DNA of 58,246 bases from Gemmatimonadota bacterium (GTDB lineage: Bacteria; Gemmatimonadota; Gemmatimonadetes; Gemmatimonadales; GWC2-71-9), in NCBI GenBank assembly GCA_036679645.1, contig JAZDCY010000020.1:1-58246 (forward strand), read 5' to 3'. Shown here in pieces: positions 2,160 to 50,278 of this stretch. The position numbers and the translations under genes are program-made. The notes beneath the pieces are model-generated. The model saw nothing but the letters and a program-made list of their open reading frames with translations, ran no database searches and had not been told where the DNA came from. The stretch's first letter is position 1. Each line of letters begins with the position of its first letter.

Positions 2160-2223
2160 CGGTGCGCGGGGAACGGTGAGCCGTGCGCGGGGCAGGCAGT
2201 ACTCGCGAGCGGTGCGCGGGAAC
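2160..2223. repeat. Degenerate 7-bp tandem repeats (CGGTGCG/CGGGGAA-like) just after the actF stop
   Basis: CGGTGCG CGGGGAA CGGTGAG CCGTGCG CGGGGCA at 2160-2194 and CGGTGCG CGGGAAC at 2210-2223. Confidence 0.6.
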
Positions 2224-4021: not shown

Positions 4022-4517
4022 CGCGCACCTCCTTGGCCCCTGACGACTGCAACAGCTGCTGGACCGCCGAGCGCCGTTCGACCGGGCACGGTACGAAAAT
4101 CCCGATCATGTCGTCCGTGAATCGTCCGTCGAACGCGGCGGGCTTTGCGTCGCGCACCGCGTGGAAGATCAGTCCGGCAATAGTGGCCCCCGCGCCGAAG
4201 AGGATCGTCAACTCGAACGCGATCACCACATACGGTATCCACGACGGGATTGGTTTCCCACCCACGATCATCGGGTAGTCGAGCGACATCCAGATGGTCA
4301 TGAGAAAACCCAGAAAAGCACCGGTGATGCCACCGAAGAGTGTCCACAGACGCACGGGGCTCACGGGGTGTCCCACCGCCTCCGCGACTTCCTCGTTTGG
4401 CACGGGCGTGTAGACCGTGAGGTCCTTGTACCCCATTTCCTTCAACTCGCGAATGGCGCTGGTGGCGGCATCCACGTGCACGAAAGCAGCCAGTAATCCG
4501 CCGGCGTGTGCGCTCAC
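4011..4517 (-). CDS. actD: ACIII subunit ActD (DUF3341)
   Basis: VYTPVP, two TM helices, YPMIVGGKP, FELTILF; GTG 4517 overlaps the actC TGA. Confidence 0.9.
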   Translation of the reverse strand: MSAHAGGLLAAFVHVDAATSAIRELKEMGYKDLTVYTPVPNEEVAEAVGHPVSPVRLWTLFGGITGAFLGFLMTIWMSLDYPMIVGGKPIPSWIPYVVIAFELTILFGAGATIAGLIFHAVRDAKPAAFDGRFTDDMIGIFVPCPVERRSAVQQLLQSSGAKEVRVED

Positions 4518-5875: not shown

Positions 5876-5880
5876 GCCGG

Positions 5881-8800: not shown

Positions 8801-8904
8801 AGGTGCTCGACCTGGTCGGTCGAACACCCGGCCAGGGTGGCTGCTCCCCCACCGGTGACACCCAACACCTTGAGAAACTTGCGGCGATTCATCTCGTCAG
8901 TCAT
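5881..8904 (-). CDS. actB: ACIII subunit ActB (molybdopterin-oxidoreductase-like B1 plus polyferredoxin B2), Tat lipoprotein
   Basis: Tat motif NRRKFLK plus lipobox LAGC; KVEGNPDHP; ANRPWLQELPDPVTKMTW; C-terminal CTGCSACVVAC, CQQC..APCEPVCP, CVGTRYCSNNCP (3Fe-4S type), CTFC...ACQQTCP. Confidence 0.95.
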   Translation of the reverse strand: MTDEMNRRKFLKVLGVTGGGAATLAGCSTDQVEHLIPYLVPNEDQIPGIATYYASTCRECSAGCGVHLRVREGRAVKVEGNPDHPVNRGRLCGRAQASLQGTYNPDRVRQPLARNADGQFDKISWDDALGRVAQAVSSANPDNVWFVTGNEGGSFDRFVDEWLAALGSSHRVVFEPFAHEALRHAARQVFGVDAVPSYRFEDAEYVLSLGADFLETWISPVEQARGFAASHGFHEGMGRYVHVEPRMSMTAMSADEWIAPAPGTEGLLALAMAQVILADGLGRFPTDARRLENTLASYTPDAVAARTEVPAEKILRLAREFAAVPSVALPGGAGTQHPDAHLTAAASLLLNYVAGNVGTTVVFGADQNVAGGSTYTSLRTFQETAVASAPDVLFIHGANPGYATPAAGAAFAAAQQNASLTVSFSRFVDETTAAADLILPDHDPYEQWNDYTPRVGVRSLQQPVMQPVFDTRQTGDVLLEVARQVGGLLARRLAPAGDGATYKDYLQNQWRRVQRDLGDRRPFDEFWREALQRGGVWGESPRRTMRLAASAATLTAPGWSTPEGQFTLIAYPSMSLLDGRGANRPWLQELPDPVTKMTWGSWVEIHPETADGLGIAEGDEVEVTSPDGSIRAPAYLHPGLRPDVVAVPFGQGHTAFGQYATDRGANVYRVLSAQPTEFGGVSHYAAVTVQPTGAHERMAKTEGKRRQLGRGIAQAVTLAAIHEGEAHPFHMAPAAEPPEREEHILEEVAEMQREATEYGPYAYEQTRWGMAIDLSQCTGCSACVVACSAENNVPHVGADQIRHGREMHWIRIERYFEGGENGEPLEARVLPMMCQQCGHAPCEPVCPVYAAYHTPDGLNAQVYNRCVGTRYCSNNCPYKVRYYNWFDMSTPEDPRTFAWPDPMHWLLNPDVTVRSKGVMEKCTFCVQRIRGAQHQAKLEGRALTDGEVVTACQQTCPSNAIVFGNLTDPNSAVAQLAADERGYHVLDGLNTTPAVTYLQKVRNLVEP

Positions 8905-8918
8905 GGCCCCTCCACCCG

Positions 8919-9524
8919 CTAGTAATGACAGGCGGTACAGTCGGTCGTGACTTGCCGCTCGGGATTGTCGGCATAGGTGCTGCGCTCATGGCACGATACA
9001 CACCAACCCATTTTGAGTGAGGCAAACTGGTAGACCTGCGGCATGCGCTGAATTTCTCCGTGGCACTGCTGACATTCTAGTTCGGCATTGACGACGTGCC
9101 GCATGTGTGGGAAATGAACGAACTGCGGAAGGCTATGTACCTCGACCCATTCGATCGGTACACCATTGGTATGCGCATCACGGACCTTCTGAACTTCCGG
9201 GTTACCCGCTCCGACGATCACGTGGCACCCGTAGCACGACGCTACCGTCGGTAGCCCGGGGCTGAAACTGACCTCGGCAGCGTAGTGACAGTACCGGCAA
9301 TCGATCTCGTACTGCCCCGCGTGGATGTCGTGTCGATAGAAGATGGGTTGGCGTGGGCCGGGGAGCCCGGCTGTGTCCACATCTACGGGAGCCTCGTACC
9401 CTCCCATAGTCGGCGTGCTTTCCTGTGCCGGTGTCCGAAAGACCTCTGCGCCGGCAGCCACCAAGAGCGTGGCGACGGCTATGGCCCCACCCGCCTTTAG
9501 CACCGACCAGACCCGCCGCGTCAT
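8919..9524 (-). CDS. actA: ACIII pentaheme cytochrome c ActA
   Basis: N-terminal hydrophobic anchor; QPIFYRHDIH; five CxxCH motifs (CRYCH, CYGCH, CQQCH, CVSCH, CTACH); LKMGWCVSCH; AGGTGG SD. Confidence 0.93.
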   Translation of the reverse strand: MTRRVWSVLKAGGAIAVATLLVAAGAEVFRTPAQESTPTMGGYEAPVDVDTAGLPGPRQPIFYRHDIHAGQYEIDCRYCHYAAEVSFSPGLPTVASCYGCHVIVGAGNPEVQKVRDAHTNGVPIEWVEVHSLPQFVHFPHMRHVVNAELECQQCHGEIQRMPQVYQFASLKMGWCVSCHERSTYADNPERQVTTDCTACHY

Positions 9525-12425: not shown

Positions 12426-13162
12426 CGCGTCGGCTCCCGTACGCCGACGCGCTCCAGGTAGCGAATCACCTCGACGCACATGGCAGTCACGAGCTTGGCC
12501 TCGCGCTCATCCATCGGCGCGCGGTGCACGAGTTCGCGCACCGAACGCATCACTATGTCCGGATTCCGTGTCTTGAAGAAATCGATCGCGCCCAGGGCCG
12601 TATCTGCCGCGCCGAAGAGGTGCTCGAGAGCTTCGTGGCGCACTAGCGGCGCCTCCTTGCGCGGCGCCTTGAGAGCTGGAAGACGTGCCTCCGCTAGAAA
12701 CACCTCGTACGCCACGACCGCGAAAGCCTGTCCCAGATTCATCGAGCTGTGGTCCGGATTCGTTGGGATCGTCGCCGTGCGATGACACCGGTCCAGCTCC
12801 GCATTGCTCAAACCCTTGTCCTCCCGACCGAACACCAACGCGACCGGACCGTCCTCGCGCGCGGCAACCACGTCGTTCATGGCGTCTCGCACGCGTTGCA
12901 CGTTGCGCTTGGCCGTGCGGCCGCGAGCGGTGAATCCCACCACGTGAACGCAGTCCGCAACTGCCTCATCGAGCGAGTCGAGCACCACCACCCGTCGCAG
13001 CACATCTCCCGTTTTGTGCGCGATGCCCTCGATACGGTACGCATCGTACTCGGCGGGCTGTACGAGCCGCAGCGAGCGGAGGGCGAAGTTCTTCATTGCC
13101 CGTACAACGAGCGCAATGTTCACGATATCCTGCGGTTGGTGCAGGACGACGATGACGCTCAC
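12422..13162 (-). CDS. trmJ: SPOUT (TrmH-family) RNA methyltransferase, TrmJ/LasT-like
   Basis: VVL..PQ..VNIA..RAMKNF, GFTAR, ALVFGREDKGLSNAEL, IPTNP..SSMNLGQA; GTG 13162 overlaps the upstream TGA. Confidence 0.85.
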   Translation of the reverse strand: MSVIVVLHQPQDIVNIALVVRAMKNFALRSLRLVQPAEYDAYRIEGIAHKTGDVLRRVVVLDSLDEAVADCVHVVGFTARGRTAKRNVQRVRDAMNDVVAAREDGPVALVFGREDKGLSNAELDRCHRTATIPTNPDHSSMNLGQAFAVVAYEVFLAEARLPALKAPRKEAPLVRHEALEHLFGAADTALGAIDFFKTRNPDIVMRSVRELVHRAPMDEREAKLVTAMCVEVIRYLERVGVREPTR

Positions 13163-15912
13163 ACAACCTCCGCCACGAGCGCCGCAGCGGGCGACTCGCG
13201 ATCGCCGCGGAGATACACCCACCCACCGCCAGTCAACGCCAGCTGCCCCGCCCGACGGTCCCGCCCGGCGCGCATCTCATTGACAACGACATTGAATGGA
13301 AACCGTTCACCGATTTGGAGCGTCCGGCCCACGTCACACACAATCAGCATGCGGTATCCGGTGCTCGTCCGGCGAGATGCACCCGACACCCGACGCGTGT
13401 CGGCTACTGTCCCGACGACCGCGCGCGGACGGAGGCGGCCACTGTCCAGGTCGGGCAGCACGACGTAGCCCTCCCATCCATCGACATCGAGATAGACCTG
13501 CACCCCGTCAGAGTGGATGTCGGCGGATTCGTTGTCCAGCCCGGGATCCGGCGCATTTGCGTCGCGCACCACGATTTGGTCTTTCGTGACATCGACGAAG
13601 AACGCGAGCCCCTCATCGAGCACGGCAACATCTACGAGCGCGCTGAACAGACCCATCGTCCCGTATTCCTCTTCCGATCGACGATATGCGTCGCGTCCGA
13701 GGGCAAACATCGGGTGTGCTGGCCACCGGTCGATCGAGACCTCGCCGGATACGCGCCGAACCAAAACGACCTGCCGGGGATGAAGTGACCGTCGTGAGGA
13801 GACGTAAGGCGCTCCAGCGGCACGTGCCTCGAGTCGCACGTGCGTCCCTTCGGCACCCGAAACGGTAATACCGCTCTTGTCTGCGGCGATCGTCCAGGTG
13901 GCAGCACTCCCGTGGACCCGCAGCGTGCCATCCTCGAGCGAGATGTTTTTCACGCCGGCCGCGGCAGTGGCGTACACCGTCGTCCACCGCCCCGGACCGG
14001 CGGCACGGCGAACGAGAAACGGCGTCACAGCCCCGTCGGCGAAGTCCGACCCTGGCGGGCCCGCACCTTCGGCAACGAGCACGTCTTCACCCCAGCGCTC
14101 GACCAGCCATGTGGTGACGGTCTGATCGCCGGAGGCAATGGGCAGGTACGGATCCCGCAACATCCCAACGGCACGAACGCGATCGTATCCGGTCTCGTGG
14201 CCGCCCCCGCCCCCTCGACCTGGATCGAGCTGCAAATCAACGGGGTCGGTGTGCATCGCTGGCAATCCCTGCACGTGCAAGGGAAGATCTACGACGCACT
14301 GCGGCGGAACCGAGACATCCACCATGTCCACCACGATCTGGTGGCCGGCCAGCACCGTTCGGTGGGCCAGCGTGCCTTCCCCAAGAGTGTCTCGCGCCGC
14401 CACACGGGTCCAGTTCCAGCCGTCCGCCGCATCTACGTGCTCGCACCAACCCACACCACCCACCTGCCCCACGCCCGCCACACCGGGGGCATTGTGCGCG
14501 AGTGTCGATCGGTACCAGAAAAGAGAGTCTGAGACGTACGAGCCGGTGCCGAAATCCACGAGTACATCTGCACCCCAGTACACCGACAGATGCAGGAGAT
14601 CTGGGTGCGCGTGGCCGCCCCGTGCGGGCCCACATTCAACCGTGACCATCACGTCCGGCTGTGGCCGCAGCATCGCGACACCGTGTGCAGGCAGGAGGGC
14701 CGCGCCTGTCTCCCATACGGGCCTGTCGGACTCGGGAGATTCCGGCACCATCCACAGGAGCGCTTTCCAGCCCAACTGATCGCGTCGGATGCGGCCGGGC
14801 GCGCGATGCTCCTCCTGTTCGGCCAGCTCGACAAAGCCGACGTCCGGCGCGTCGGGGAGATCGTCGTCGTACAGACGCGCTAGGACCGCATCGAGTCGCG
14901 GATCGACGACTCGTGCCCGGCCGATTTCCCATAACTCCGCGAACCGATGTTGGCGTACGCTTGCACCGTATGGCGCATCACCACGTGCGGGCACCACGAA
15001 ATTGGGCAGCAACGTCGCAAGGGGTGCCGTGTACATGCGCCCCAACGGTGAGTTGTCGTACAGGGCCGTCCCACCCCACCGCGCCCACTCGGCTGCGAGC
15101 AGAAATCCGCGCAGAGCAAAGAGGTGATAGTTCTCCCCTTCGTGCCAGTACCCATCGTCGTCCACCGCGGAGAGGAGAGCGCGGACACCAGAACCGCCGT
15201 CGAGGCCCGCACGCCGCAGGCGTTCGTCCCCGAGCCACGTGCCCGCCGCGAGAAGGGCCGTGGCGTTCCAGACCTGACGGTTGGACCACCCCTCTTCGAA
15301 GGAACCGATTAGCTCCGCCGACTCGCCAACCATCGCAGCGACCGCCGCTCGCGCTGCACCGCCCCCGCCCCCGTCCCCGCCCCATTCGGCCGGGTTCGCT
15401 ACGTCCAGTATGGCAGCGGCGGTCGCGATCTGAACGAGCCAGATCGATTCCAGATAGGTCGAGAAGAACAACCGCGTGGGGCCGAGCACGTTGTCACGAT
15501 TGGGATACGAGCGATAACGCGACGCGTACCCGGTGAGGATCTCGACGGCCTTGCGCAAGAGCGCCGGCTCGTCGCGCAGAACGCCCAGCAACGCACAGTG
15601 GATGGCCCGCTCGGAGAGCCAGAGCTGGTAGCGCATGATCCACGCACGATGATGCCGGGCACCCTCGTACGTTGCGTGACAGCGCGGGCAGGTGTGGGCG
15701 TGAGGTGTCAGCGGGTCGAATAGCAGGCGAGCACCATCCACCTGGCATATCCCCCCGTCGCGAGAGAGCTGTGCCTTCTCGTCCGGTAGCTCGAGCGGGC
15801 GTCCGAGCAACGGCCCGAGGTGCTGTTCCAGATGATCCGTCACGCGCTGCAGGATGGGCGCTCGGGCAATCTCATTGGCCCGAGCCCGTAGCTCAACTTC
15901 GAGTACTCTCAT
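13159..15912 (-). CDS. Heparinase II/III-family (polysaccharide-lyase-like) protein with C-terminal CBM9/DOMON-like domain
   Basis: DGYWHEGENYH, GHAHPDLL, DFGTGSY, STLAHN motifs; C-terminal DVTKD...DGVQVYLD...FNVVVN; no signal peptide; ATG 15912 chosen as start. Confidence 0.8.
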   Translation of the reverse strand: MRVLEVELRARANEIARAPILQRVTDHLEQHLGPLLGRPLELPDEKAQLSRDGGICQVDGARLLFDPLTPHAHTCPRCHATYEGARHHRAWIMRYQLWLSERAIHCALLGVLRDEPALLRKAVEILTGYASRYRSYPNRDNVLGPTRLFFSTYLESIWLVQIATAAAILDVANPAEWGGDGGGGGAARAAVAAMVGESAELIGSFEEGWSNRQVWNATALLAAGTWLGDERLRRAGLDGGSGVRALLSAVDDDGYWHEGENYHLFALRGFLLAAEWARWGGTALYDNSPLGRMYTAPLATLLPNFVVPARGDAPYGASVRQHRFAELWEIGRARVVDPRLDAVLARLYDDDLPDAPDVGFVELAEQEEHRAPGRIRRDQLGWKALLWMVPESPESDRPVWETGAALLPAHGVAMLRPQPDVMVTVECGPARGGHAHPDLLHLSVYWGADVLVDFGTGSYVSDSLFWYRSTLAHNAPGVAGVGQVGGVGWCEHVDAADGWNWTRVAARDTLGEGTLAHRTVLAGHQIVVDMVDVSVPPQCVVDLPLHVQGLPAMHTDPVDLQLDPGRGGGGGHETGYDRVRAVGMLRDPYLPIASGDQTVTTWLVERWGEDVLVAEGAGPPGSDFADGAVTPFLVRRAAGPGRWTTVYATAAAGVKNISLEDGTLRVHGSAATWTIAADKSGITVSGAEGTHVRLEARAAGAPYVSSRRSLHPRQVVLVRRVSGEVSIDRWPAHPMFALGRDAYRRSEEEYGTMGLFSALVDVAVLDEGLAFFVDVTKDQIVVRDANAPDPGLDNESADIHSDGVQVYLDVDGWEGYVVLPDLDSGRLRPRAVVGTVADTRRVSGASRRTSTGYRMLIVCDVGRTLQIGERFPFNVVVNEMRAGRDRRAGQLALTGGGWVYLRGDRESPAAALVAEVV

Positions 15913-16933
15913 CGAGCACCTGGACGGTGACCTGAACGCCTGCGAAATCGAAGCCAACGTCCAGCGCCTGCGCGCCGGCACGCACCGCAGCCTCACGCGC
16001 GATCGGTACGCATGTCGGCGGACAGACACCAATGAGGCAACCGCCCGCCCCCGCGCCCGTCGCTTTCACCCCCCACACGCCCGCGGCACGCAGCGCCTGC
16101 TCCACGGCGCGAACGCCCGGCGTCGCAATCGTGGCATCGAGCCGCTGCTGTTGCCGCCAGTTGTCGTCGATCACGCGCGCCAACCGTTCCCAGTCCGCCC
16201 CACGCAACGCCGTAGCGGCCTCCGCGCCAAGATCTCGGATGATGGCAAGCGCATCGACGACCTCGGCGCTGCCCGCTGCGTAGGCGTCCCAGACGCGCCG
16301 GTGCGTCTGCGAGGAGAAATGCGTTTCCCCCGTGTAGACGAGTACCAACGACCGCGCCAGGTCGGCGGCCTGCTCGTGCGATACATCTATGGGAGACGCC
16401 CGCTCGATTCCCGCATCCGAAAACGCGAGCTCGTGCCACCCACCGAGCGCAGCCGCACACTGGTCCTGGCGTCCCCCTTCGAGACCGAGTTCCGTGGCCT
16501 CGAGCTGAAACGCCAGCTCCGCGATTGCGGCATCGTCGTACTGTTCGCCGCGGGCGGCCGCGAGCGCCGCCACCAACGCAACATCGAGTGCACCCGACCC
16601 GCCCAACCCGGATCCAGCCGGGATCTCCGCTCGCGTCAACAGCTCCACCCCGCCCGTCACCGGCAACATGTTCAATGCCGCCTTGTGGAGATCGAGTTTC
16701 CCATCGTACACGAGCTGAACGGGATGACTCAACGTGGCGTGCTCACCGAGGTCCTCTGCATGCAGGCGGATCGAGCCGCCGCCCGTGACGCACTCGACGT
16801 GCACATACAGTTCCAGTGCCGCGTTCGTGACGACGCCGCCGACGTCCGACGCATAAACCGGAACATCCGTCCATCCTCCCGCGAAGTCGGCGCGCACCGG
16901 AGCGCGGGCCCGGATGAGGAATCGGTCTGCCAT
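15893..16933 (-). CDS. GHMP-family sugar kinase (HddA/fucokinase-like)
   Basis: APVRADFAGGWTD, PAGSGLGGS, GGRQDQ, KATGAGAGG. Confidence 0.9.
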   Translation of the reverse strand: MADRFLIRARAPVRADFAGGWTDVPVYASDVGGVVTNAALELYVHVECVTGGGSIRLHAEDLGEHATLSHPVQLVYDGKLDLHKAALNMLPVTGGVELLTRAEIPAGSGLGGSGALDVALVAALAAARGEQYDDAAIAELAFQLEATELGLEGGRQDQCAAALGGWHELAFSDAGIERASPIDVSHEQAADLARSLVLVYTGETHFSSQTHRRVWDAYAAGSAEVVDALAIIRDLGAEAATALRGADWERLARVIDDNWRQQQRLDATIATPGVRAVEQALRAAGVWGVKATGAGAGGCLIGVCPPTCVPIAREAAVRAGAQALDVGFDFAGVQVTVQVLDESTRS

Positions 16934-16938
16934 GCGGT

Positions 16939-16944
16939 ATTCTA
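16939..16944 (-). promoter_or_regulatory. Putative -10 element (TAGAAT) of a leaderless transcript for the GHMP kinase operon
   Basis: TAGAAT-accgc-ATG on the minus strand. Confidence 0.5.
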
Positions 16945-17050
16945 GTCCTTTACCGGGCGGAACGGAGTCCGCGAGTGAACTCGCGCGGCAGGTTCACGCA
17001 CCAAGGCTCACAACGACCACGCCGTTCAGCGCCCACCGCGCAGAGGTTCA

Positions 17051-18607
17051 CTAACGTGCCCCCACACGCCACGATGCAAGACCGGCCAGTTCACCCCGGA
17101 GATCGATCCGCACGCCCTCGATGCGTCTACTCACTCCCTGGACGCCACGTGCGTGGTAGATCCAAGCGGTGGGAGCCGCCTCAGACAGATGCCGCTGCAC
17201 GGCACGCCAGGCGTCCGCCAAGTCGCTCTCGGTCGTTGCCCGCCGCGTGGCCTCGAAAGCCCGCGTCAGATCGTCATGTGAATAGCCAGGATACGCGAGT
17301 GGGCCGTCGCCGTCATACATCGCCGCCACATAGCCCAATGCGAGGTCTCCCGGAATCCCCGTCACCAACGCATCGAAGTCGCGCTGTTCCCCTTGGATCG
17401 TCGCGAGGAAGCTCGCCAGCTCGAGTTGCCGGATTCGCACATTGGCGCCGACCTCGCGCAGCTGCGCCTGCACCATCTGCTCGAGCGCCATGGAACCGCT
17501 CCCCACGGTGAGTAGATCGAACGCCAGCGGCGTACCGCCACGGGCGCGAATGCCGTCCGCGCCCATGACCCATCCGGCGGCCTCGAGGAGGCGGGCCGCG
17601 GCCACCGTGTCGCGGCGTGTGGGATCGACATCGGCGTACCACGGATGCTCCGGCTGTACCGGGCCCGCCGCTGGCGTACCGAACCCGTAGAGAAACGCCT
17701 TGACTATGAGCTCACGATCGAGGGCACTGGACAGCGCGCGACGCACGTTTGCGTCGTCGAACGGTGACCGCCGCAGGTTGAAGACGAGGGCGTAGGAAAA
17801 CAGGACCGGGTAGTCCACCACGCGCAGTCGCTCATCTTCGCGGACGAACGCCGCGTGAGCTGGGTTGATGCCGGCGAAGTCCAGCTCGCCCGACGTGAGC
17901 GCCGCGAGCTTCGTCGTAGATTCGTCAACGATCGCGATCACGAGCCTATCCGCGACCGGCCGCCCGAGGTCCTGCGGGAAATCCGCTGATCTGCGAAAGA
18001 CCCACCGTTGATTGGGTCGATGTTCGACGAACACAAAAGGACCGTTCCCGATTGGGTCGGCATTGAACGGCGCGCGGCGCAACTCGCCCGGGGCGACACC
18101 CTCAAATCGATGCGCCGGGAGAATCGGCAGGTCGGTGAACACGTCAGGGAATACGGGCTGCGGTCCCGCGAATTGCACCCGGACGGTCAGCGAATCCACG
18201 GCCTCGACCATTCGCACCCCGTTCAGATCACGCGCACGCGGATAGGCAACCGCAGGATCGCGCGCGCGATCCATCGTCCACACTACATCCGCCGCCCTCG
18301 TGGGGCGGCCATCGTGCCAGCGAACGTCGTGCCGTAACCGGAACGTGAGCGCCGAACGGTCCGCGCTCCACTGCCACGAGGCGAGTCGCGGCATAGGCCG
18401 CATGGCAGAGTCGTACGTCGCCAAGGTAAGAAACAGCACGTACTTCTGCACCTGCTTAGCAAGCGGATGTACCGTTACCAACGGGTTGATGCTCTGGAGA
18501 TCTGCGCCCGAGGCAAAGAGGATAGTGGCGTCTCCGGCATGCTCGTCCGTCGGTCCACATCCCGGAAGAAGCGCACCCAAGACGACGGCGAACGCACCAT
18601 GCCGCAG
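17051..18607 (-). CDS. ABC transporter family-5 (peptide/nickel-type) substrate-binding lipoprotein; start uncertain (CTG 18607 or ATG 18667)
   Basis: Lipobox LPGC; LTFRLRHDVRWHDGRP..AADVVWT; PIGNGPF; SGELD; PFDDANVRRALS.ALDR. Confidence 0.88.
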   Translation of the reverse strand: MRHGAFAVVLGALLPGCGPTDEHAGDATILFASGADLQSINPLVTVHPLAKQVQKYVLFLTLATYDSAMRPMPRLASWQWSADRSALTFRLRHDVRWHDGRPTRAADVVWTMDRARDPAVAYPRARDLNGVRMVEAVDSLTVRVQFAGPQPVFPDVFTDLPILPAHRFEGVAPGELRRAPFNADPIGNGPFVFVEHRPNQRWVFRRSADFPQDLGRPVADRLVIAIVDESTTKLAALTSGELDFAGINPAHAAFVREDERLRVVDYPVLFSYALVFNLRRSPFDDANVRRALSSALDRELIVKAFLYGFGTPAAGPVQPEHPWYADVDPTRRDTVAAARLLEAAGWVMGADGIRARGGTPLAFDLLTVGSGSMALEQMVQAQLREVGANVRIRQLELASFLATIQGEQRDFDALVTGIPGDLALGYVAAMYDGDGPLAYPGYSHDDLTRAFEATRRATTESDLADAWRAVQRHLSEAAPTAWIYHARGVQGVSRRIEGVRIDLRGELAGLASWRVGAR

Positions 18608-18618
18608 CCCGACCTTCC

Positions 18619-18648
18619 TTGACGGCGGCGGCGTCCTCGTCGCAGCCT
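18619..18648 (+). promoter_or_regulatory. Putative leaderless promoter for the permease pair
   Basis: TTGACG (18619-18624), 18 nt, CAGCCT (18643-18648), 5 nt, ATG 18654. Confidence 0.35.
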
Positions 18649-18653
18649 TCGGT

Positions 18654-19649
18654 ATGTTGCGTCGCATAGCACTTCGGATGGGCATAGGGCTAGCGCTCGT
18701 GTGGGCCGTTGTGACGGTCACGTTCGTGCTCCTCCACCTGGCGCCCGGAGATCCGGCCCGCCTCTGGGTCAGCCCGGGCGCCGGAGCCGATGAACTCGAC
18801 GCGGCACGGCGTGCGCTCGGACTCGACCGCCCCCTCCTGATACAATACGTCGGGTGGATTGCCGACTTCGCGCGCGGCGACTGGGGTACCAGCCTCGCGC
18901 AGAATCGCCCCGTCACGCGGGTGCTCCTGGACGCACTGCCACACACCCTCCTGCTGTCGGCAGCCTCATTGATGCTGACCTACGTGGGAGGGATAATCGT
19001 CGGATTGATCCAGGCGGTAAAGCACCGCTCCCGTATCGACACCGCCATCACGACGGTTTCGCTGGTGGCATACGGGATGCCCGCCTTTTGGCTCGCCCTC
19101 ATTCTCGTGCTCGTGTTCACGTACACCGCCGCCCGGAACGGGTGGCCGCAGTGGTTGCAGTTCCCGGCGATGGGCGTGGCCGGGCTGAACGCCGACTTCC
19201 TGAGCCCGTGGCAAAGGCTCGTCGATCGGCTGCGCCACCTCGTCCTCCCGCTCACGACGCTCTCTCTGATCGGTGCGGCAGGCACCGCCCGGTACGTGCG
19301 CGGCGCGCTGCTCGACGTGCGGTCGCTGGACTACGTCCGCACCGCGCGGGCCAAGGGACTGACACCCGTCGCGGTGGAACTGCGGCACGTCCTGCGCAAT
19401 GGCCTACTACCGGTGGTGACGCTCCTTGGTCTAGCGCTCCCCGCGCTCTTTTCGGGCACCGTTTTCGTCGAGGTGATCTTTGCGTGGCCCGGGATCGGCC
19501 GCGAGATGGTCGGCGCCGTCGGGGCACGCGACTACCCGGTGGTGATGGCATCCACTGCCGTCTTCGCGTCGCTGGTGGTGCTGGGCAACCTGCTCGCCGA
19601 CCTGCTCTACACCGCGGTCGATCCGCGCCTCCGGCGGCCCGCGACGTGA
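18654..19649 (+). CDS. ABC peptide-type permease (DppB/OppB-like)
   Basis: LAPGDP, LGLDRPL..QY, GDWGTS, DYVRTARAKGL (EAA loop), VEVIFAWPGIG, RDYPVV, DPRLR. Confidence 0.93.
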   Translation: MLRRIALRMGIGLALVWAVVTVTFVLLHLAPGDPARLWVSPGAGADELDAARRALGLDRPLLIQYVGWIADFARGDWGTSLAQNRPVTRVLLDALPHTLLLSAASLMLTYVGGIIVGLIQAVKHRSRIDTAITTVSLVAYGMPAFWLALILVLVFTYTAARNGWPQWLQFPAMGVAGLNADFLSPWQRLVDRLRHLVLPLTTLSLIGAAGTARYVRGALLDVRSLDYVRTARAKGLTPVAVELRHVLRNGLLPVVTLLGLALPALFSGTVFVEVIFAWPGIGREMVGAVGARDYPVVMASTAVFASLVVLGNLLADLLYTAVDPRLRRPAT

Positions 19650-20560
19650 CGTTCATCCGCGCGCTGCTCGCTGACCGGCGGTCGGCGACGGGCTTGGGGC
19701 TCGTGACGCTCGTCGCTGCGTTGGCCCTTCTGGCCCCGTGGATCGCACCGGCAGATCCACTGCTGCAGACCGACGTGCTCCGTACCCGGTTCCTCGCCCC
19801 ATTTACGTCCGGACCGGACGGCATGATGCGCTGGCTGGGGACGGACCAACTCGGACGGGACATCCTGAGCCGGTTACTGTATGGCGCGCGCATATCACTG
19901 GCTATAGGAGTACTCTCCGCCCTGTTCGCCGTGGCAGTAGGGATGGCAGTCGGTGCCGGCGCGGCCGTCTTCGGTAAGAGAACCGAGCGGGTCTTGATGG
20001 CGCTCACAGACGCGGCATTGGCGTTGCCCCGCCTGGTGTTGCTGCTCGCGTTGGTCGCTCTGTTCGAGCCGAGCCTCTGGCTCGTCGTAGGGGTACTCGG
20101 CCTCACCGGTTGGATGCCGATTGCCCGTCTGGTGCGTGCCGAGGTGAAGGGCCTGTTGGCTCGTCCGTTCGTCGATGCCGCGGTCGTTGCCGGCGCGAAC
20201 CGCTGGCTCCTGCTGCGGCGGCACCTGCTCCCGAACGCGCTGACGCCGGTGCTCGTTGCTGCGGCGTTGAGTGTGGGAAACGCGATCGCCCTCGAGGCGG
20301 GCCTCGCTTTCCTGGGGCTGGGCATTCCGGCGCCGGCACCCTCGTGGGGAAACATGATCGCGAGTGGTCGCGATGCCCTGGTCCACGCCCCGTGGATTGC
20401 CACTGTGCCTGGGTTGGCCCTGGTGGTGGCGATCGTGGCATTCAATCTGATCGGGGATGGTGCGCGCGACGCGCTCGACCCATCTGTCGCGACTAGAGGC
20501 CGAGTTCCCTCCGCGCATCGGGCGGAAGGAGGGAAAGCACGAGACGAACGGGTACGGTAA
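19646..20560 (+). CDS. ABC peptide-type permease (DppC/OppC-like)
   Basis: LGTDQLGRDILSRLLYGARISL, FVDAA...GA, HLLPN, LAFLGLG...PSWGNMI, GDGARDALDP; GTGA overlap. Confidence 0.93.
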   Translation: MTFIRALLADRRSATGLGLVTLVAALALLAPWIAPADPLLQTDVLRTRFLAPFTSGPDGMMRWLGTDQLGRDILSRLLYGARISLAIGVLSALFAVAVGMAVGAGAAVFGKRTERVLMALTDAALALPRLVLLLALVALFEPSLWLVVGVLGLTGWMPIARLVRAEVKGLLARPFVDAAVVAGANRWLLLRRHLLPNALTPVLVAAALSVGNAIALEAGLAFLGLGIPAPAPSWGNMIASGRDALVHAPWIATVPGLALVVAIVAFNLIGDGARDALDPSVATRGRVPSAHRAEGGKARDERVR

Positions 20561-22631
20561 ACCCGAGCCCAGCGGCTTCTCGGAGGCCTCGCGCATGGAC
20601 GGAAACGACCTCCCCCTGCGCGTTGAAGACCGGGCTGCCGCTCGACCCCCCGACCGTGAACCCGTCGAACTGGATCAGTTCCGGCGTCACCTTCGAGAAG
20701 ATGCCGGCGCTCATCGATGTGCGAACCGTCCGCGTCTGATCCATGGCCGCGGCCACGCCGGCCGGGAACCCGATGAGCGCCGCCGGCTCGCCCTGCCGCG
20801 CGCGGTTGCCGATCCAGTCGACCCCAGCGACATACGGGCCGCTGTAGTTCCGGATACGGATCACGGCCAGGTCCGGCCCGCCACGTGCCGACTCCACGGC
20901 AATCACATCAGCGCGCGACATGGTCCGATGATCGGCCATGGTGACGAAAACGGAATCCGGGGCACGCCCCTCCGGCCTCACGACATGTCGATTGGTGATG
21001 AAATAGCCCGATGCCGTCACCGCGAATCCCGATCCATCGAAGATGTCGGTACCCGCGAACGTAGAGACCAACCCGACCGCTCCCTGATTGGCCTGTGCGA
21101 CAGCGGCGAGATCCGTTCCCCGCACCGCTCGGACGTTCGCTGCGATCTCGCTCGCACGCCGTTCCGCATCATGCACCGCCTCGCGCAGGCTGTCGAGCAG
21201 CTCGCGCGAGACGTTCCCGCCCGACCCGGCCACTTCTGCACGCAGCCGCTCGAGTTCCTCCTGCGCGGCCCGCCGCATCGATTCGCCCGCCGCGAGCTGC
21301 GCTGCAACTGCTGTCTGGGCGCGTTCCAGCGCGTTCTCGAGAGCTGCTGTACGTTGCTCGGCTGACTCGAGCGCGCTGCGGAGGCTATCGACGACCTCGG
21401 CCGGTGCCGACGATTCGCGCGCGTCTACCAGGGCGACACTCAGCCGCTGGTATTCCGCCACCGCCGCCAACCGGACGGAATCGGCGGACGCGCGTGCCGC
21501 CTCGAGCTCCCGCCGTTGAGAGGCCAACTCCGCTTCCGTCGCGCGCACGCGCTGCTCGCTCCACCAATAGAGCCCGCCGAGCCCCACGACGAGCAGGACC
21601 ACGAAGCTCCAGACGATCCAGCGCACCCGTGATACGCTCTTGCGATGCGTATCGTCGATGAGATCCCGGATGAAGATGGTGCGGCCCTTGCCACCAAAGC
21701 TGCGGCGGTCCTCAGGGGCGGCTACCGGGGCTGCGGCCGCTGGGGCCGCTGGGGCCGCTACAGGTTCAGGCCCGCGAGGGGCGGGCGTTGCGGGCGGGGC
21801 GGCGGCGTGTTTCGGTGCGGGCGGCGGCGGCACCGGTGCGGCAACGCCGGGGCCTTCCAAGCGCTCGACCAGAAGTTCGGGGCCCGCATCGCCCAATTGA
21901 ATCCGGTCTCCCACCGCCAGCGGCCGTTCCGCCGACAGGGGTTCACCGTTCAGCAGGGTCCCGTTCCTGCTACGCGCGTCGCGGACCACCACTCCCCCTT
22001 CGGGCAGCAACACCACCTCGCAGTGCGTGCGCGAGACCGACGCGTCGCCAATCTCGACGGGGCGCAGCTCGCATTCCTTGCCTCGACCAATCCGGATACG
22101 CCCGCCGGTCGCCTCGAAATCGCCGCCCGAGCGGAGATCGTGCAATCGCAGACGTATCTCGGGGGCGGCCGCCACGGGTTCGGTCGTCGGTGTGACCAGC
22201 GCCGGAGGGGGAGGGGGAGGGGGAGTCTCCGCGCCGGGCGGTACGTAGGGGTCCATCGGCGCCGTCGCGTCGTCAGGACTCGCGAGCGGCTGTTCCATCA
22301 GCGTCTCGGCCACACGGCGGTCTTGCGTGGCGTCGACCTCGAACCGCGCCCCCCGTGACCCGAGTGCTACAACCTGCCCCTGATCTACACGAATCGCGTT
22401 CCCCGCCTGCACTCGCTGCCCCTCGACGAAGGTCCCATTCCGGCCGCCGATGTCCTCAACCCACCAGGCACCGTCTCTGTGCACGAATCGGGCATGCGAG
22501 CCGGAGACGACCTCGCTGCCCTCACCGGAGATGGGAAGCTCGAAATCGGGATCGCGGCCCAGACGCACTTCGGGGCCGTCGAACTCATGGATCTGGTTGT
22601 CGCGGAGGTCGCGGAGCCGGAGGAATGGCAT
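20493..22631 (-). CDS. Dual-FHA, single-TM, coiled-coil, trypsin-like serine protease
   Basis: Two FHA domains (GR...S..H...NGT each), Pro-rich linkers, TM WIVWSFVVLLVVGLGGLYWW, heptad-rich helix, then GSGF, TNRHVV (His), DLAVI (Asp), GSSGSP (Ser). Confidence 0.9.
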   Translation of the reverse strand: MPFLRLRDLRDNQIHEFDGPEVRLGRDPDFELPISGEGSEVVSGSHARFVHRDGAWWVEDIGGRNGTFVEGQRVQAGNAIRVDQGQVVALGSRGARFEVDATQDRRVAETLMEQPLASPDDATAPMDPYVPPGAETPPPPPPPALVTPTTEPVAAAPEIRLRLHDLRSGGDFEATGGRIRIGRGKECELRPVEIGDASVSRTHCEVVLLPEGGVVVRDARSRNGTLLNGEPLSAERPLAVGDRIQLGDAGPELLVERLEGPGVAAPVPPPPAPKHAAAPPATPAPRGPEPVAAPAAPAAAAPVAAPEDRRSFGGKGRTIFIRDLIDDTHRKSVSRVRWIVWSFVVLLVVGLGGLYWWSEQRVRATEAELASQRRELEAARASADSVRLAAVAEYQRLSVALVDARESSAPAEVVDSLRSALESAEQRTAALENALERAQTAVAAQLAAGESMRRAAQEELERLRAEVAGSGGNVSRELLDSLREAVHDAERRASEIAANVRAVRGTDLAAVAQANQGAVGLVSTFAGTDIFDGSGFAVTASGYFITNRHVVRPEGRAPDSVFVTMADHRTMSRADVIAVESARGGPDLAVIRIRNYSGPYVAGVDWIGNRARQGEPAALIGFPAGVAAAMDQTRTVRTSMSAGIFSKVTPELIQFDGFTVGGSSGSPVFNAQGEVVSVHARGLREAAGLGFTVPVRLVLSLLPPDARRELGL

Positions 22632-22708
22632 GTCGCGCGAATATGCAGGATCTGACGCGCGGTTACCAGACGGATGCCCCTCTGGCCCGGAACCATGTAC
22701 CTTGCCGC

Positions 22709-24484
22709 GTGAGTATGGTATCGCGCGGTCTGTCCCAACCACCCATCGCCAATTCGGTCGACGCCGTCGCGCTGTTCGAGGCGGCCCGATCCGCTTTCGA
22801 GGGCATGTTCCGCCTCGAGCGGTTGGTTGCAGCCAACCAGTACCGCGCGTTGTTCGTCGCCCGGCACGCCGTCCTCAAGCGGCAGGTCGCGTTGCGAGTT
22901 CACCTCGACCCGCACGGCGAGGGAAGAGCCTGGTTCGAGCGCGAGACCGAGCTGCTGGCCCGCATCGACCATCCGGGCGTTCGGCCCATCCACTCGGCCG
23001 GGTATCGGGAGGGGTGGGCCTATCGCGTGAGCAAGTGGATCGATGGGGAGAGCCTCGAAGACGCCATGGCTCGGGGACCGCGCCCGCTACCCGACGTGCT
23101 GCAGATTGCACGCGACCTGTCGTCGGCGCTGGACTACGCGCACAGCGAGGGCATCGTGATCCGGCGTATCGCGCCGACCGCTCTCATGCTGACCCGCGCG
23201 CGGAGAGCGATCATCACCGACATGCGGTGGGCGAACCAGCTCATGGACGTCGCCTCTCCCGAGCCGGTGGAGGAGTTCCGGGCGTTCATGGCACCGGAGA
23301 CCAGGGAGGGCGGAGTAGGAGACCCCGGTGCCGACGTGTACACCACCGGCGCACTGCTCTACTACGCCACCACCGGGCGGGAACCGGCGCTGGATTCTGC
23401 CGACATTGAACCACCGCGCGCACTGCGCGCCGCGTGTCCCCGAGCGCTCGAGCGCGTGATACTTCACGCGCTCAGGCGCAGGCCTGAGACCCGGTATCTC
23501 ACTGCAGCGGAGATGGGTGCGGACTTGCTCTCCGAAATCGGCGACTTCGAGCTGCAGACGTCGGTGGAACCGGCCGTGGGCGGGACAGAGACCCCAGCGG
23601 AATGGGAACGGCAGCTCCGCCGCGCGTTGGGCGACCAATACGAACTGCTCGGCGAGCTGGGAAGCGGCGGCTTTGGACGCGTATATCGCGTTCGCGACCT
23701 GAGCCTCGAACGCGAGGTAGCGCTCAAGGTGCTCCACCCGTGGCTCACCACCGACCCCGCGGTGATCGAGCGGTTCCGTCGAGAGGCGCGCTTGGCGGCG
23801 CAGGTGCGGCATCCACATATCGTCGAGGTGCACGGGATCGGTGGGCGGGGCGGACTGCTGTGGTACACGATGGCGTACGTGCCCGGCGAGAACCTCGACC
23901 AGCTCGTCGAACGCGCCGGCCCGCTCCCCACCGATCGCGCCCTGCACCTGCTCGATCAATCGCTGAGCGGCCTCGCGCACGCGCATCGGTTGGGACTCGT
24001 ACACCGCGATCTCAAACCGGCCAACATCCTCATCGAGCTGCCGTCGTGGGACACGCAGATCACCGACTTCGGGCTCGCGTTGGCGTTCGAGGGGATGCTG
24101 CCCGACGGTCGCTCTCCCTCCCGCTCGGGCACGCCCGCGTTCGCCGCACCCGAGCAACTCCTCGGCGAACCGGTCGATGTCCGGGCAGACATCTATTCCC
24201 TCGCAGTGGTTGCGATCTTTGCGCTGACGGGCCGCTCGCCCTTTGCCGGCGGATCGGTCGAATCGATCGTGGCACGCCAGGCCGCGGGCCTGCTGCCCGA
24301 CCTCCGAGCGGCACGCCCAGGACTGCCGCGGCGCTTGCGAAATGCGCTCGTGCGTGCCGCGTCGCGGGACCCGGAGGATCGCTTCGCGACCGCAGGGGCG
24401 TTTCGCGAGGCGGTGGGAGCAGCCAGCCAGGGCAAGGGAAGGCTCCTCGGCGGTTGGCTGCGGGGACAATTCGGCAGCGCCTGA
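22709..24484 (+). CDS. Tandem pseudokinase plus active Hanks-type Ser/Thr kinase (start GTG 22709 or ATG 22715)
   Basis: Domain 1: VALRV, IRRIAPTA, DMR, MAPE, ADVY (degenerate). Domain 2: GSGGFG, VALKV, HRDLKPAN, DFG, GTPAFAAPE, DIYS (intact). TACCTT lies 5 nt before the GTG. Confidence 0.9.
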   Translation: MSMVSRGLSQPPIANSVDAVALFEAARSAFEGMFRLERLVAANQYRALFVARHAVLKRQVALRVHLDPHGEGRAWFERETELLARIDHPGVRPIHSAGYREGWAYRVSKWIDGESLEDAMARGPRPLPDVLQIARDLSSALDYAHSEGIVIRRIAPTALMLTRARRAIITDMRWANQLMDVASPEPVEEFRAFMAPETREGGVGDPGADVYTTGALLYYATTGREPALDSADIEPPRALRAACPRALERVILHALRRRPETRYLTAAEMGADLLSEIGDFELQTSVEPAVGGTETPAEWERQLRRALGDQYELLGELGSGGFGRVYRVRDLSLEREVALKVLHPWLTTDPAVIERFRREARLAAQVRHPHIVEVHGIGGRGGLLWYTMAYVPGENLDQLVERAGPLPTDRALHLLDQSLSGLAHAHRLGLVHRDLKPANILIELPSWDTQITDFGLALAFEGMLPDGRSPSRSGTPAFAAPEQLLGEPVDVRADIYSLAVVAIFALTGRSPFAGGSVESIVARQAAGLLPDLRAARPGLPRRLRNALVRAASRDPEDRFATAGAFREAVGAASQGKGRLLGGWLRGQFGSA

Positions 24485-24537: not shown

Positions 24538-25371
24538 GTGACTGTTCGCATTGCGTTGGCTCAGATATCCGCAGGGCCGGATCCATCGGAGAACCTCGAT
24601 CGTGCAATCTCTGCGATGCACGATGCAAAGGCCGCCGGCGCGAACCTGGTCGCCTTCCCCGAGCTGGCCGTGACACGGTTCTTTCCGCAGTTCGCGGAGT
24701 ATCCCGCTGCGCGCGATCTCGCGGAACCCATCCCGGGACCCACGGCCGATCGGGTTGGACAGACGGCCGCCGACCTGGGCCTGGTCACCGTGTTCAACAT
24801 GTACGAGGCGTCCGGCCAGCGGTACTACGATTCCTCGCCCGTCTTCGACGCCGACGGCACGCTCCTCGGCGTCACCCGCATGATCCACATTACCGAGTAC
24901 GCCTGTTTTCACGAGCAGGCCTACTACGACCCCGGAGACCATGGAGCGCCCGTGTACGACACGCGCGTGGGACGCGTTGGAGTGGCGATCTGCTACGACC
25001 GGCACTACCCCGAGTACATGCGAGCCCTTGGCGTGGCGGGAGCCGAACTCGTGATCATCCCGCAGGCGGGAGCCGTCGAGGAATGGCCTGACGGCTTGTA
25101 CGAGGCAGAAATCCGTACCGCATCGTTCCAGAACGGATACTTCGCGGCGTTGTGCAACCGCGTCGGGGTGGAAGAGCGGCTCACATTCGCCGGGGAGTCG
25201 TTCGTGGTGAGTCCCACCGGCCAAGTGATGACAACGGGTGCGCGCCTGCAGGACGACCTCGTTGTGGCCGATCTCGACCTCTCGACGTGTGCACACTCAC
25301 CCGCCCGGACACTCTTCTGGCGGGATCGGCGCCCGGACCTTTACGCCGATTGGCTCCGCTCGGCTCGGTGA
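24538..25371 (+). CDS. Carbon-nitrogen hydrolase (nitrilase superfamily, N-carbamoylputrescine amidase-like) with Met at the catalytic Lys position
   Basis: RIALAQ, FPEL (Glu42), TRMIH (normally RKxH), ICYDRHYPE (Cys152), NRVG.E, FAGESFVVSP.G, RDRRPDLY. Confidence 0.88.
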   Translation: MTVRIALAQISAGPDPSENLDRAISAMHDAKAAGANLVAFPELAVTRFFPQFAEYPAARDLAEPIPGPTADRVGQTAADLGLVTVFNMYEASGQRYYDSSPVFDADGTLLGVTRMIHITEYACFHEQAYYDPGDHGAPVYDTRVGRVGVAICYDRHYPEYMRALGVAGAELVIIPQAGAVEEWPDGLYEAEIRTASFQNGYFAALCNRVGVEERLTFAGESFVVSPTGQVMTTGARLQDDLVVADLDLSTCAHSPARTLFWRDRRPDLYADWLRSAR

Positions 25372-26996
25372 CGCCGTCCGACAACGTGGGTCTCCGCCCC
25401 GCGCCGGAACGGTCCGTATCTGGTTCCGGGGAAGTCACGGGTACGCTGGAACCGTCGGCCGTCGGCGTCGGCGAGCACCCGACGCCAGCAACACCCGTTC
25501 TGCCGGACGCGGTGATCGCCAAGGTCGCGAGCCGCCTCGGCATCATCTCCCTCATGTATGCCGTGTCGTTCGCGGTCGTCCACCTGGCCGTACGCTTTGT
25601 CGACCTGCCGGACTACTGGCGGGAAGGCCCTGCCGGGATTCGACTCAACGACGCGACGGCCCTTCTCTTTGTCGCACTGTCCGTCGTGGTGTTCGCGGTC
25701 GCGCGCGGCGACCGGCTTGCCCGGGAACGGCTGGTATTCATCGGACTGGTCTACGAGATCGTGGCGGCGTTCGGCATCGAGATTGCCACCGTCTTCTTCC
25801 CTTCTCCTGAGTTCATCAACCCCAACGGGATCTCATGGTCGTGTGTCCTGATCGTGATTTTCCCCTTGATCGTGCCAACGACGACGCGGCAGACGCTGGT
25901 GGCCGCCTCGGCCGCCGCCGCCATGCGCCCGCTCGCGTTTGGCCTATTGGCGCTCGACGGCGTACCGCTACCCCCAGCCGCACCGCTGTTTCTCCTCCTG
26001 TTGCCCAACTTCCTTTGCGTAGGAGTGGCGGTCATTGCAGCGCGAGTGGTCAATGAATTCGGCGCTGATCTTTCGCGCGCGCGCAGCATGGGCAGTTACC
26101 AACTCGTCGAGCGATTGGGCGAGGGTGGCATGGGCGAGGTGTGGCGGGCGACGCACCGTCTGCTCGCACGCCCCGCAGCGATCAAGCTGATCCGTCCCGA
26201 GCGCCTTGGTTCCTACGAGCCGACCACGCGTTCCACGCTGAGGAAACGGTTCGAGCGCGAAGCCAGAGCGACAGCGGCACTCTCGTCGCCGCACACAATC
26301 CAACTGCACGACTACGGGACCACAGGCGACGGGGTGTTCTACTACGTGATGGAGCTGCTCCACGGACTGGACCTCGGCGACCTGGTGCAGCGCTTCGGTC
26401 CGCAGCCGCCCAACCGGGTCGTCCACATCATGCGGCAGGTGTGCCGGTCACTCGCCGAAGCGCATGCGACGGGGCTGGTTCACCGAGACATCAAGCCGGA
26501 AAACATCTATCTCTGTCGCATTGGACTGGAGTACGATTTCGTCAAGGTCCTCGATTTTGGTCTCGTGAAATCGGTCGAGCATACGGGGACGGCCCTCACG
26601 CTCAAGAACGTCGCCACCGGCACCCCGGCCTTCATGGCTCCGGAGATCGCGCTGGCCGAGTCGATCGACGGTCGGGCTGATATTTACGCGCTGGGATGCG
26701 TCGCCTATTGGCTCCTGTCGGGCCAACTCGTGTTCACCGCGCCGAATCCGATGCGCGCCATCTTCGCACACATCAACACCTCACCCGAGCGCGTGTCGGG
26801 CCGCACGGAATTACCCGTGCCGCCCGAACTCGAAGACCTGGTCATGATGTGCCTGGAGAAGCAGCCCGATCACCGCCCGCAAACGGCAGAGGACCTGCTG
26901 CAAAGCTTGAGCGTCCTCGACCTCGGCACGCCGTGGAGCCGGGAGCGCGCCACCGACTGGTGGCGGGCACATCTGCCAGAACTAGTTGAACGTTAG
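25368..26996 (+). CDS. Membrane Ser/Thr kinase with about 6 N-terminal TM helices
   Basis: Six hydrophobic segments, then LGEGGMGEVW, AAIK, HRDIKPEN, DFGLVK, GTPAFMAPE; GTGA overlap with the upstream gene. Confidence 0.92.
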   Translation: MTPSDNVGLRPAPERSVSGSGEVTGTLEPSAVGVGEHPTPATPVLPDAVIAKVASRLGIISLMYAVSFAVVHLAVRFVDLPDYWREGPAGIRLNDATALLFVALSVVVFAVARGDRLARERLVFIGLVYEIVAAFGIEIATVFFPSPEFINPNGISWSCVLIVIFPLIVPTTTRQTLVAASAAAAMRPLAFGLLALDGVPLPPAAPLFLLLLPNFLCVGVAVIAARVVNEFGADLSRARSMGSYQLVERLGEGGMGEVWRATHRLLARPAAIKLIRPERLGSYEPTTRSTLRKRFEREARATAALSSPHTIQLHDYGTTGDGVFYYVMELLHGLDLGDLVQRFGPQPPNRVVHIMRQVCRSLAEAHATGLVHRDIKPENIYLCRIGLEYDFVKVLDFGLVKSVEHTGTALTLKNVATGTPAFMAPEIALAESIDGRADIYALGCVAYWLLSGQLVFTAPNPMRAIFAHINTSPERVSGRTELPVPPELEDLVMMCLEKQPDHRPQTAEDLLQSLSVLDLGTPWSRERATDWWRAHLPELVER

Positions 26997-50245: not shown

Positions 50246-50278
50246 GGCGGGTCGGCCTTGGAGTCGGCCCGCCTGTTT
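50246..50278 (+). terminator. Probable intrinsic terminator after the acyl-CoA dehydrogenase
   Basis: GGCGGGTCGGC-CTTGGA-GTCGGCCCGCC (11 bp including 2 G.U pairs) followed by TGTTT. Confidence 0.55.

Follow-up and report, generated by a model that had tools for sequence, protein, structure and literature searches.

A 58,246-nucleotide stretch of DNA from a Gemmatimonadota bacterium (Gemmatimonadales, GWC2-71-9; GCA_036679645.1, contig JAZDCY010000020.1, forward strand), here called the window, carries two divergent genes, one for an FHA-FHA-transmembrane-stalk-trypsin protein and the other for a soluble tandem pseudokinase-kinase. Conserved threonines in the cytoplasmic linkers of the first protein, its intact FHA domains and the retention of the gene pair among relatives suggest a route in which a kinase, probably the neighbour among others, phosphorylates linker threonines of the protease, the FHA domains bind them and the signal reaches a protease in the envelope. 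We give this route, taken as a whole, an even chance. That the protease is phospho-regulated at all is a good deal more probable, and we lean slightly towards the neighbouring pseudokinase-kinase being a cognate writer of the mark.

Domain architecture of the protease and the pseudokinase-kinase

The divergence of the two genes across a 77-bp gap, the intact FHA and catalytic residues and the succession of a degenerate and an intact kinase fold, all claimed by the sequence-only reading, are borne out (Table 1). In the protease gene product Pfam recognizes FHA in two stretches (E 2e-30) and Trypsin_2 at residues 533-676 (E 1e-20); it returns no PDZ match, as had been claimed, and the protein ends 16 residues past the last protease strand. 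Comparisons were based on 93 non-identical full-length orthologues (111 before de-duplication), a set that leaves out G001 and G043, cut at contig ends, and the frameshifted orthologues of G086 and G093, which lack an FHA-containing frame; the unpublished G016 and one G015 contig apparently identical to G074 were excluded from alignments and trees. Both FHA domains carry G-R (25-26 and 182-183), S-x-x-H (43-46 and 200-203) and N (65 and 223), each kept in 90-93 of the 93 orthologues, and the presence of the G-R, S-x-x-H and N-G residues would class both as phosphothreonine-binding FHA domains. The catalytic triad H549, D587 and S664 is present in 93/93 sequences at each position. The C-terminal domain combines the chymotrypsin fold and His/Asp/Ser triad of the HtrA family, its best PDB matches by sequence and structure being HhoA, HtrA1, DegP and DegS; by its lack of PDZ and by its scores with the NCBIfam HtrA models (31-64 bits against cut-offs of 416-470) it departs from that family.

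The AlphaFold2 (AF2) model of the protease, built from 46 orthologues (mean pLDDT 84.6), shows two FHA folds, disordered linkers at residues 106-153 and 270-321 and a C-terminal chymotrypsin fold, its low pTM of 0.46 being expected because the domains are flexibly joined. The stalk region is made up of helices 319-406, 411-469 and 476-504, and measures mostly 135-150 residues in orthologues (range 79 to 163). Of the layout proposed earlier the domains and the transmembrane helix thus stand, while 'coiled coil' is to be read as predicted long helices with a modest periodicity of 100-103 degrees and not as an oligomer model. One hydrophobic segment lies at about residues 336-356. The flank of the transmembrane helix that faces the FHA domains is the more positively charged in 92/93 orthologues, and the predicted topology is therefore FHA-in and protease-out (N-in/C-out), which supports, as a prediction, the earlier placing of the protease domain on the far side of the membrane.

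Within the otherwise hypervariable, AF2-disordered linkers the two most conserved columns are T110 and E113, which belong to a T-hydrophobic-x-E motif between the FHA domains where pLDDT falls below 50 (residues 106-117). Thr110 is kept in 91/93 orthologues, the remaining two having a threonine nearby, and E113 of this T-x-x-E in 86/93; about half of the orthologues have a second linker threonine near residue 123. Thr318, where the helix leading into the membrane begins, is a threonine in 79/93. Set against these, the kinase appears a poor FHA ligand: its activation loop offers S471, S473 and a single invariant threonine, T475 of the GT motif, position 470 is variable (T in 34 and S in 22 of 68 orthologues) and a proline in this genome, and its disordered linker and tail hold no conserved threonine in those 68 sequences. 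The earlier proposal that the kinase itself docks on the FHA domains consequently fares badly, and Thr110 and Thr318 are the better candidates; their conservation suggests that the FHA domains bind phosphorylated sites of the very protease they belong to, as in mycobacterial Rv1747. The FHA residues, T110 and T318 are intact in all ten kinase-less protease sequences inspected.

The kinase gene product contains two Pkinase stretches in Pfam and two kinase domains in its AF2 model (mean pLDDT 89.5); it has no sensor domain, and at the threshold used a transmembrane segment is absent from 70/70 orthologues. Its C-terminal domain has the G-loop, beta3 Lys, alphaC Glu, HRD-x-K-x-x-N, DFG and APE elements of a Hanks-type kinase, with G318/G320/G323, K340, E359, HRD, K436, N439, D453 and G455 in 68/68 orthologues, and matches PknB in Foldseek (TM-score 0.9 to target). 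The N-terminal domain is a pseudokinase in which arginine replaces the beta3 Lys (R63) in 67/68 orthologues and arginine or lysine replaces the HRD Asp (R153; 64 R, 3 K) in 67/68, the DFG Asp (D171) being kept in 68/68. Further invariant or nearly invariant positions are R46 at the third G-loop Gly and E79 (both 68/68), R152 (67/68) and R173 at the DFG Gly (66/68), so that the domain is, judged by its alignment, conserved and not decaying. Proteins with multiple kinase domains are common among bacterial entries of sequence libraries; arginine at the HRD-Asp position occurs in only 1/103 kinase-fold domains of this genome, and among 329 domains from the best 150 library matches the full R-R-E-R-R-x-D-R signature or its fragments fell to high-identity family members. 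Such a positively charged dead site suggests that a nucleotide or phospho-ligand is bound there without metal, by analogy with the proposals made for DLHK and ActPs2. A C-terminal helix whose hydrophobic moment exceeds that of its own shuffles in 63/66 orthologues, with a mean net charge of +3.7, is a possible membrane anchor.

Linkage of the two genes, paralogous loci and surroundings

Within the family the kinase is near-core and single-copy, being found in 130/141 genomes, and the protease is found in 49/141. In 44/46 family genomes with both genes these are divergent neighbours within about 2.2 kb, with a YdjM or zinc-dehydrogenase gene sometimes between them; the two exceptions are G043, in which the pair is split over two contig ends, and G024, in which it is unlinked. 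The count includes the unpublished G016 and G085 (42/44 without them) and is no statistical test because related genomes are not independent. In this genome 143/3387 non-kinase genes (4.2%) have a Ser/Thr kinase gene as immediate neighbour, and a single adjacency of protease and kinase is therefore weak evidence, the retention in 44/46 genomes real evidence. A quick SH-aLRT tree of the kinase places the pair in two clades with different flanks, and the proteases of the linked clades are about 41-65% identical; in a third clade the kinase lies within a queC/queE-GGDEF-cold-shock-infA block and no protease is present.

Of the 80 named loci, 50 have the kinase upstream of the protease and 14 do not extend far enough; the other 16 were scored as lacking it, several of these with less than 2.1 kb of upstream DNA. 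For comparison with flanking genes, the kinase is kept in 42/53 named loci with at least 3.5 kb upstream, and the commonest downstream genes of the protease in only 13, 12 and 10 of 34 loci; the protease-kinase junction thus outlasts every flanking junction measured (42/53 against at most 13/34). Named homologues come from Gemmatimonadales or Gemmatimonadota. In a sample of 150 genomes of the phylum the kinase occurs in 71/74 of family f1, 2/2 of f3 and 0/74 from 10 other families, and the protease in 18/74 of f1, 1/31 of f2, 2/2 of f3 and 0/43 others, and a spread of the pair across the phylum was rejected at the thresholds used.

A more general association of such proteases with kinases emerges from the paralogues. 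Hidden Markov model searches find 98 Ser/Thr kinase genes and 6 FHA proteins in this genome; three of the six are FHA-TM-trypsin proteins (TM, transmembrane), and all three adjoin a kinase gene or sit within two genes of one. A one-FHA paralogue is encoded last in a four-gene operon (G000:C22:44494-49377; L111:6495-11378) after a two-FHA protein, a zinc-ribbon Ser/Thr kinase and a PP2C with a hydrophobic C-terminus, and the same operon is conserved elsewhere: at 20 loci, fetched out of the 27 best matches outside this genome (G000), PP2C lies directly upstream in 20/20 and a kinase is present in 18/20. Of the one-FHA paralogues, 18/21 have a threonine at a comparable juxtamembrane site, and the inter-FHA threonine of the two-FHA protein is invariant (17/17). 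The operon is more widespread among relatives than the protease of the window and is probably a better experimental model than the pair itself. The third such protein (G000:C1:11573-17086, L112; 608 residues) has a large insertion in its protease domain, and its gene is divergent from that of a kinase-Ig-RCC1 receptor kinase. FHA-trypsin clusters in Acidobacteriota, Pseudomonadota and Bacteroidota offer further leads.

Several loci depart from the usual arrangement. The protease orthologue is split over two frames at L073 (G093) and L096 (G086), both in single-contig genomes, by frameshift or sequencing error; only protease fragments lie beside the kinase in G005 and G021, and the gene is missing from an otherwise intact site in G012 and G083. 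Kinase and protease look identical across two genera at L045 (G015:C65) and L082 (G074:C30); G015 has a second kinase copy without protease, and its C65 contig may be misbinned.

Within the intergenic gap, -10-like hexamers lie just before the kinase start (TACCTT, 22698-22703, +) and just before the protease start (CATATT, 22645-22640, -). In short orthologous gaps a TAnnnT-like hexamer was seen by eye beside the kinase start in 14/14 and beside the protease start in 13/14, which suggests two leaderless promoters, one per gene; a sigma-70 scan of the gap gave no full match, and no terminators were found. Longer upstream starts at 22742 and 22355 were rejected because the orthologues have their starts at the position matching Met 22631 and close to 22709.

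Table 1. Positions in the window of the divergent genes and of the features of their products.
Feature	Position	Strand	Details	Basis
FHA-FHA-TM-helical stalk-trypsin gene	20493-22631	-	712 residues; ATG 22631; HtrA fold, no PDZ	
FHA1	22329-22622	-	residues 4-101; G25, R26, S43, H46, N65	
Thr110	22302-22304	-	T-hydrophobic-x-E in the disordered linker between FHA1 and FHA2; putative phosphosite and FHA ligand	
FHA2	21855-22157	-	residues 159-259; G182, R183, S200, R201, H203, N223	
Thr318	21678-21680	-	juxtamembrane candidate phosphosite	
Transmembrane helix (single)	21564-21620	-	residues about 338-356; predicted N-in/C-out	hydrophobicity, charge
Helical stalk, predicted extracytoplasmic	21120-21563	-	residues 357-504	AF2 helices
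Chymotrypsin-fold protease domain	20496-21119	-	triad H549/D587/S664	
Divergent gap	22632-22708	strand-neutral	77 bp; separates protease and kinase starts	
Soluble tandem pseudokinase-kinase gene	22709-24484	+	591 residues; GTG 22709 (or ATG 22715)	
Arginine-lined pseudokinase domain	22796-23539	+	residues 30-277; R46, R63, E79, R152, R153, D171, R173	
Intact Hanks-type Ser/Thr kinase domain	23633-24427	+	residues 309-573; PknB-like	
C-terminal amphipathic basic helix	24437-24472	+	candidate membrane anchor	AF2 helix 577-588

Around the pair in the window lie genes of transport and metabolism (peptide ABC transporter, nitrilase, RND pump); these vary among relatives and give no consistent hint at the substrate of the protease. 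A heparinase II/III-like gene, a GHMP kinase and the peptide ABC transporter, its binding-protein gene divergent from two permease genes, occupy 13159-20560 and, in one clade, often stay close to the protease. A Ser/Thr kinase whose N-terminal part is a multi-pass membrane region (25350-26996), encoded two genes downstream of the pseudokinase-kinase, is not seen at that place in most relatives. Further away lie cytochrome c, molybdopterin oxidoreductase and NrfD genes identified by Pfam (2223-9524), a set typical of an alternative complex III-like cluster, and a gene for a predicted secreted protein of 1847 residues with repeats (50277-55820). In one clade of relatives, chaperone-usher-like pilus genes with a weak PapD_N match lie downstream of the protease site (L042, L047, L053, L097, L099).

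Proposed route and competing explanations

The proposed mechanism starts from a protease predicted to cross the inner membrane once, whose periplasmic HtrA-fold domain is likely regulated from the cytoplasmic side. Thr110 and Thr318 would be phosphorylated by Ser/Thr kinases, the neighbouring pseudokinase-kinase probably among them, and the two FHA domains would bind the phosphorylated residues in cis or in trans. Binding would compact or cluster the cytoplasmic tails, as described for Rv1747, and thereby alter the clustering of the stalks; transmembrane helix and stalk would relay the change to the PDZ-less protease domains, whose activity would change, activation being modestly favoured over inhibition. 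On the kinase side, input probably enters through the arginine-lined dead domain, where a nucleotide or phospho-ligand bound without metal would regulate the active domain in cis, and the amphipathic tail would place the enzyme at the membrane. A more specific inside-out version, in which a JAK-like soluble kinase senses a cytoplasmic phosphate-bearing ligand in its arginine-lined dead site and phosphorylates the FHA tail, whose clustering activates the PDZ-less periplasmic protease, is tentative and rather doubtful.

A number of observations weigh against this reading, and in particular against an exclusive pairing. No protease match was obtained in 84/130 kinase-positive family genomes, and because most genomes that keep the kinase are of this kind it must have other targets. 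Conversely, G025, G119 and G141 carry the protease but yielded no kinase orthologue, nor did 9/10 further protease-bearing genomes, for which completeness is not given and the search had no positive control; in one kinase-less group the protease follows pyruvate dehydrogenase-like genes (named by reading translations), and these proteases nest among the kinase-linked ones in the tree. Both genes are present and unlinked in 7/8 genomes of family f3, as in G024. Any of the 98 kinases of this genome could write the phospho-mark. In both clades a GH38 mannosidase gene, too, has been retained close to the protease (8/19 and 4/15), so that old synteny accounts for some of the linkage. The earlier expectation of co-conservation thus holds for adjacency where both genes occur, and fails for the many genomes that have one without the other or both apart; likewise the postulated link of kinase, FHA and protease stands in general form, through the three paralogues and the PP2C/kinase operon, but the pair is neither obligate nor a dedicated two-gene system.

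These points would suit a history in which other kinases regulate the protease, and in which it lies beside the pseudokinase-kinase through inherited synteny, the two having no functional pairing. Within single clades the linkage of the kinase to unrelated genes is just as tight (an ABC transporter pair; the GGDEF/cold-shock/infA block), and each gene of the pair apparently has its own -10 element. Yet no flanking junction measured lasts as long as that between protease and kinase, which spans clades with diverged proteases, and we regard this history as unlikely, if the most serious of the competing explanations. Less probable by about half is a scaffold in which the kinase, once autophosphorylated, or else its dead domain binds the FHA domains directly and so clusters the protease. 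Kinase and FHA domains are both predicted at the inner face of the membrane, and contacts between pseudokinases and FHA proteins are known, of YukC with the tandem FHAs of YukB (PMC9600267) and of phosphorylated MviN with FhaA (PMC12599244; here and below, papers are represented by those parts of their text that were available). The scarcity of conserved threonines in the kinase, including the variable position 470, speaks against such docking, as does the fact that the YukB/EssC FHAs lack the phospho-binding residues that are here invariant even in kinase-less genomes.

The FHA domains might instead do no more than bring an envelope protease or chaperone that is always active to a phosphorylated complex in the membrane (division site, pilus or secretion machine), with no transmembrane switch. 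FHA proteins are commonly recruiters (type VI secretion Fha, FhaA), a stalk as long and as variable in length as this one is easier to reconcile with a spacer than with a rigid lever, and the chaperone-usher-like genes of one clade could be read in the same sense; however, the conserved threonines within the protease point to self-binding and no secretion or division genes co-occur consistently, so that we consider mere positioning improbable, marginally more so than the scaffold. A role in anti-phage defence, with the kinase as sensor and the protease as effector, had also been raised and is the least probable by far. The kinase does match the PADLOC models PD-T4-6, mad6 and PglW and the NCBIfam models MAD6 and PglW, and the stalk-protease part matches RT-Protease_XI; the PADLOC matches, however, reflect generic kinase or trypsin similarity, the NCBIfam scores lie far under their cut-offs (MAD6 218 against 460; PglW 119 against 990), and a near-core, single-copy kinase with stable neighbourhoods within clades, among transport and metabolic genes, is not what such a module would lead one to expect. 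The defence role was accordingly rejected, neither a curated score nor co-located system genes placing the kinase in a MADS, BREX or PD-T4-6 system.

Most work on bacterial Ser/Thr kinases has treated them as outside-in receptors, and HtrA-type proteases have mostly been seen as enzymes switched by periplasmic ligands through PDZ domains. If the proposed route is true, a protease switched from the cytoplasm by phosphothreonine reverses both views, and FHA-TM-stalk-trypsin proteins would form a class of envelope proteases gated by kinases, with FHA in place of PDZ as the activation switch. They would also tie the kinase set of Gemmatimonadales, very large and unstudied, to a concrete output; here it is represented by the kinases, FHA proteins and three FHA-TM-proteases counted above. 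The residues T110, T318, R26, R183, S664, K340 and R153 make the proposal directly testable, and the arginine-lined pseudokinase is a structural target in its own right.

Comparison with known systems

The closest parallel is Rv1747 of Mycobacterium tuberculosis, a two-FHA membrane protein whose disordered inter-FHA linker is phosphorylated at T152 and T210 by the Hanks-type kinase PknF, encoded next door, with compaction and oligomerization as the result (PMC8339232). The pair described here has the same combination of two FHA domains, a conserved threonine in a predicted disordered linker and an adjacent kinase gene. It differs in its effector, which in Rv1747 is an ABC transporter with a cytoplasmic ATPase, a function for which Pfam gives no indication here, and which in our case is a predicted extracytoplasmic protease. 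PknF is moreover a receptor kinase from the same operon as its target, whereas the present kinase is soluble, tandem and divergently encoded.

The protease shares its fold and best matches with HtrA, DegS and HhoA (S1C), and DegS is likewise membrane-anchored and envelope-facing; it lacks their PDZ domain, has the loop TVGGSSGSP and not the HtrA motif, and adds a long stalk and cytoplasmic FHA domains. The order of a pseudokinase and then a kinase in one chain recalls JAK/TYK2 JH2-JH1 and the cereal tandem kinases, and the TYK2 pseudokinase-kinase is the top Foldseek match by E-value; at 19% identity, a TM-score of 0.37 and a root-mean-square deviation of 20 A, a TYK2-like relative arrangement of the domains is therefore not supported. 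With no FERM/SH2 and an active domain that is PknB-like and not of tyrosine-kinase type, the protein does not belong to the JAK family, and its JAK-like layout is convergent. The pseudokinases DLHK and ActPs2, with active-site arginines and proposed metal-free ATP binding, come from other phyla, have other motifs and are described with no fused active kinase in the available text (PMC12599244; bioRxiv 2025.01.12.632604); the words 'Gemmatimonad' and 'tandem' occur 0 times in the main texts of these two papers, and the supplements of the bacterial kinase atlas may include the present family. In type VIIb secretion the YukC/EssB pseudokinase also acts together with a tandem-FHA membrane protein, YukB/EssC, whose phospho-binding residues are lacking (PMC9600267), but there the pseudokinase is transmembrane and the effector a secretion ATPase, in contrast to the soluble kinase and the protease found here.

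No characterized system with this pairing was known to the sequence-only reading, and the open-access literature likewise yielded no study of the pair or of an FHA-controlled envelope protease; the layout is not described in the available part of the Kaur 2020 paper on conflict systems (PMC7159879), nor does that of the MADS preprint say anything on MAD6 architecture. The protein architecture itself is not without precedent, since a 2008 survey lists NP_811686.1 from Bacteroides thetaiotaomicron as FHA-FHA-trypsin (PMC2605481); compared by description only, the two share their domain order, the listing giving no transmembrane helix, stalk, kinase neighbour or function. With an envelope protease as an output that the open-access literature searched does not describe, the pair otherwise fits the known theme of kinase, FHA domain and effector.

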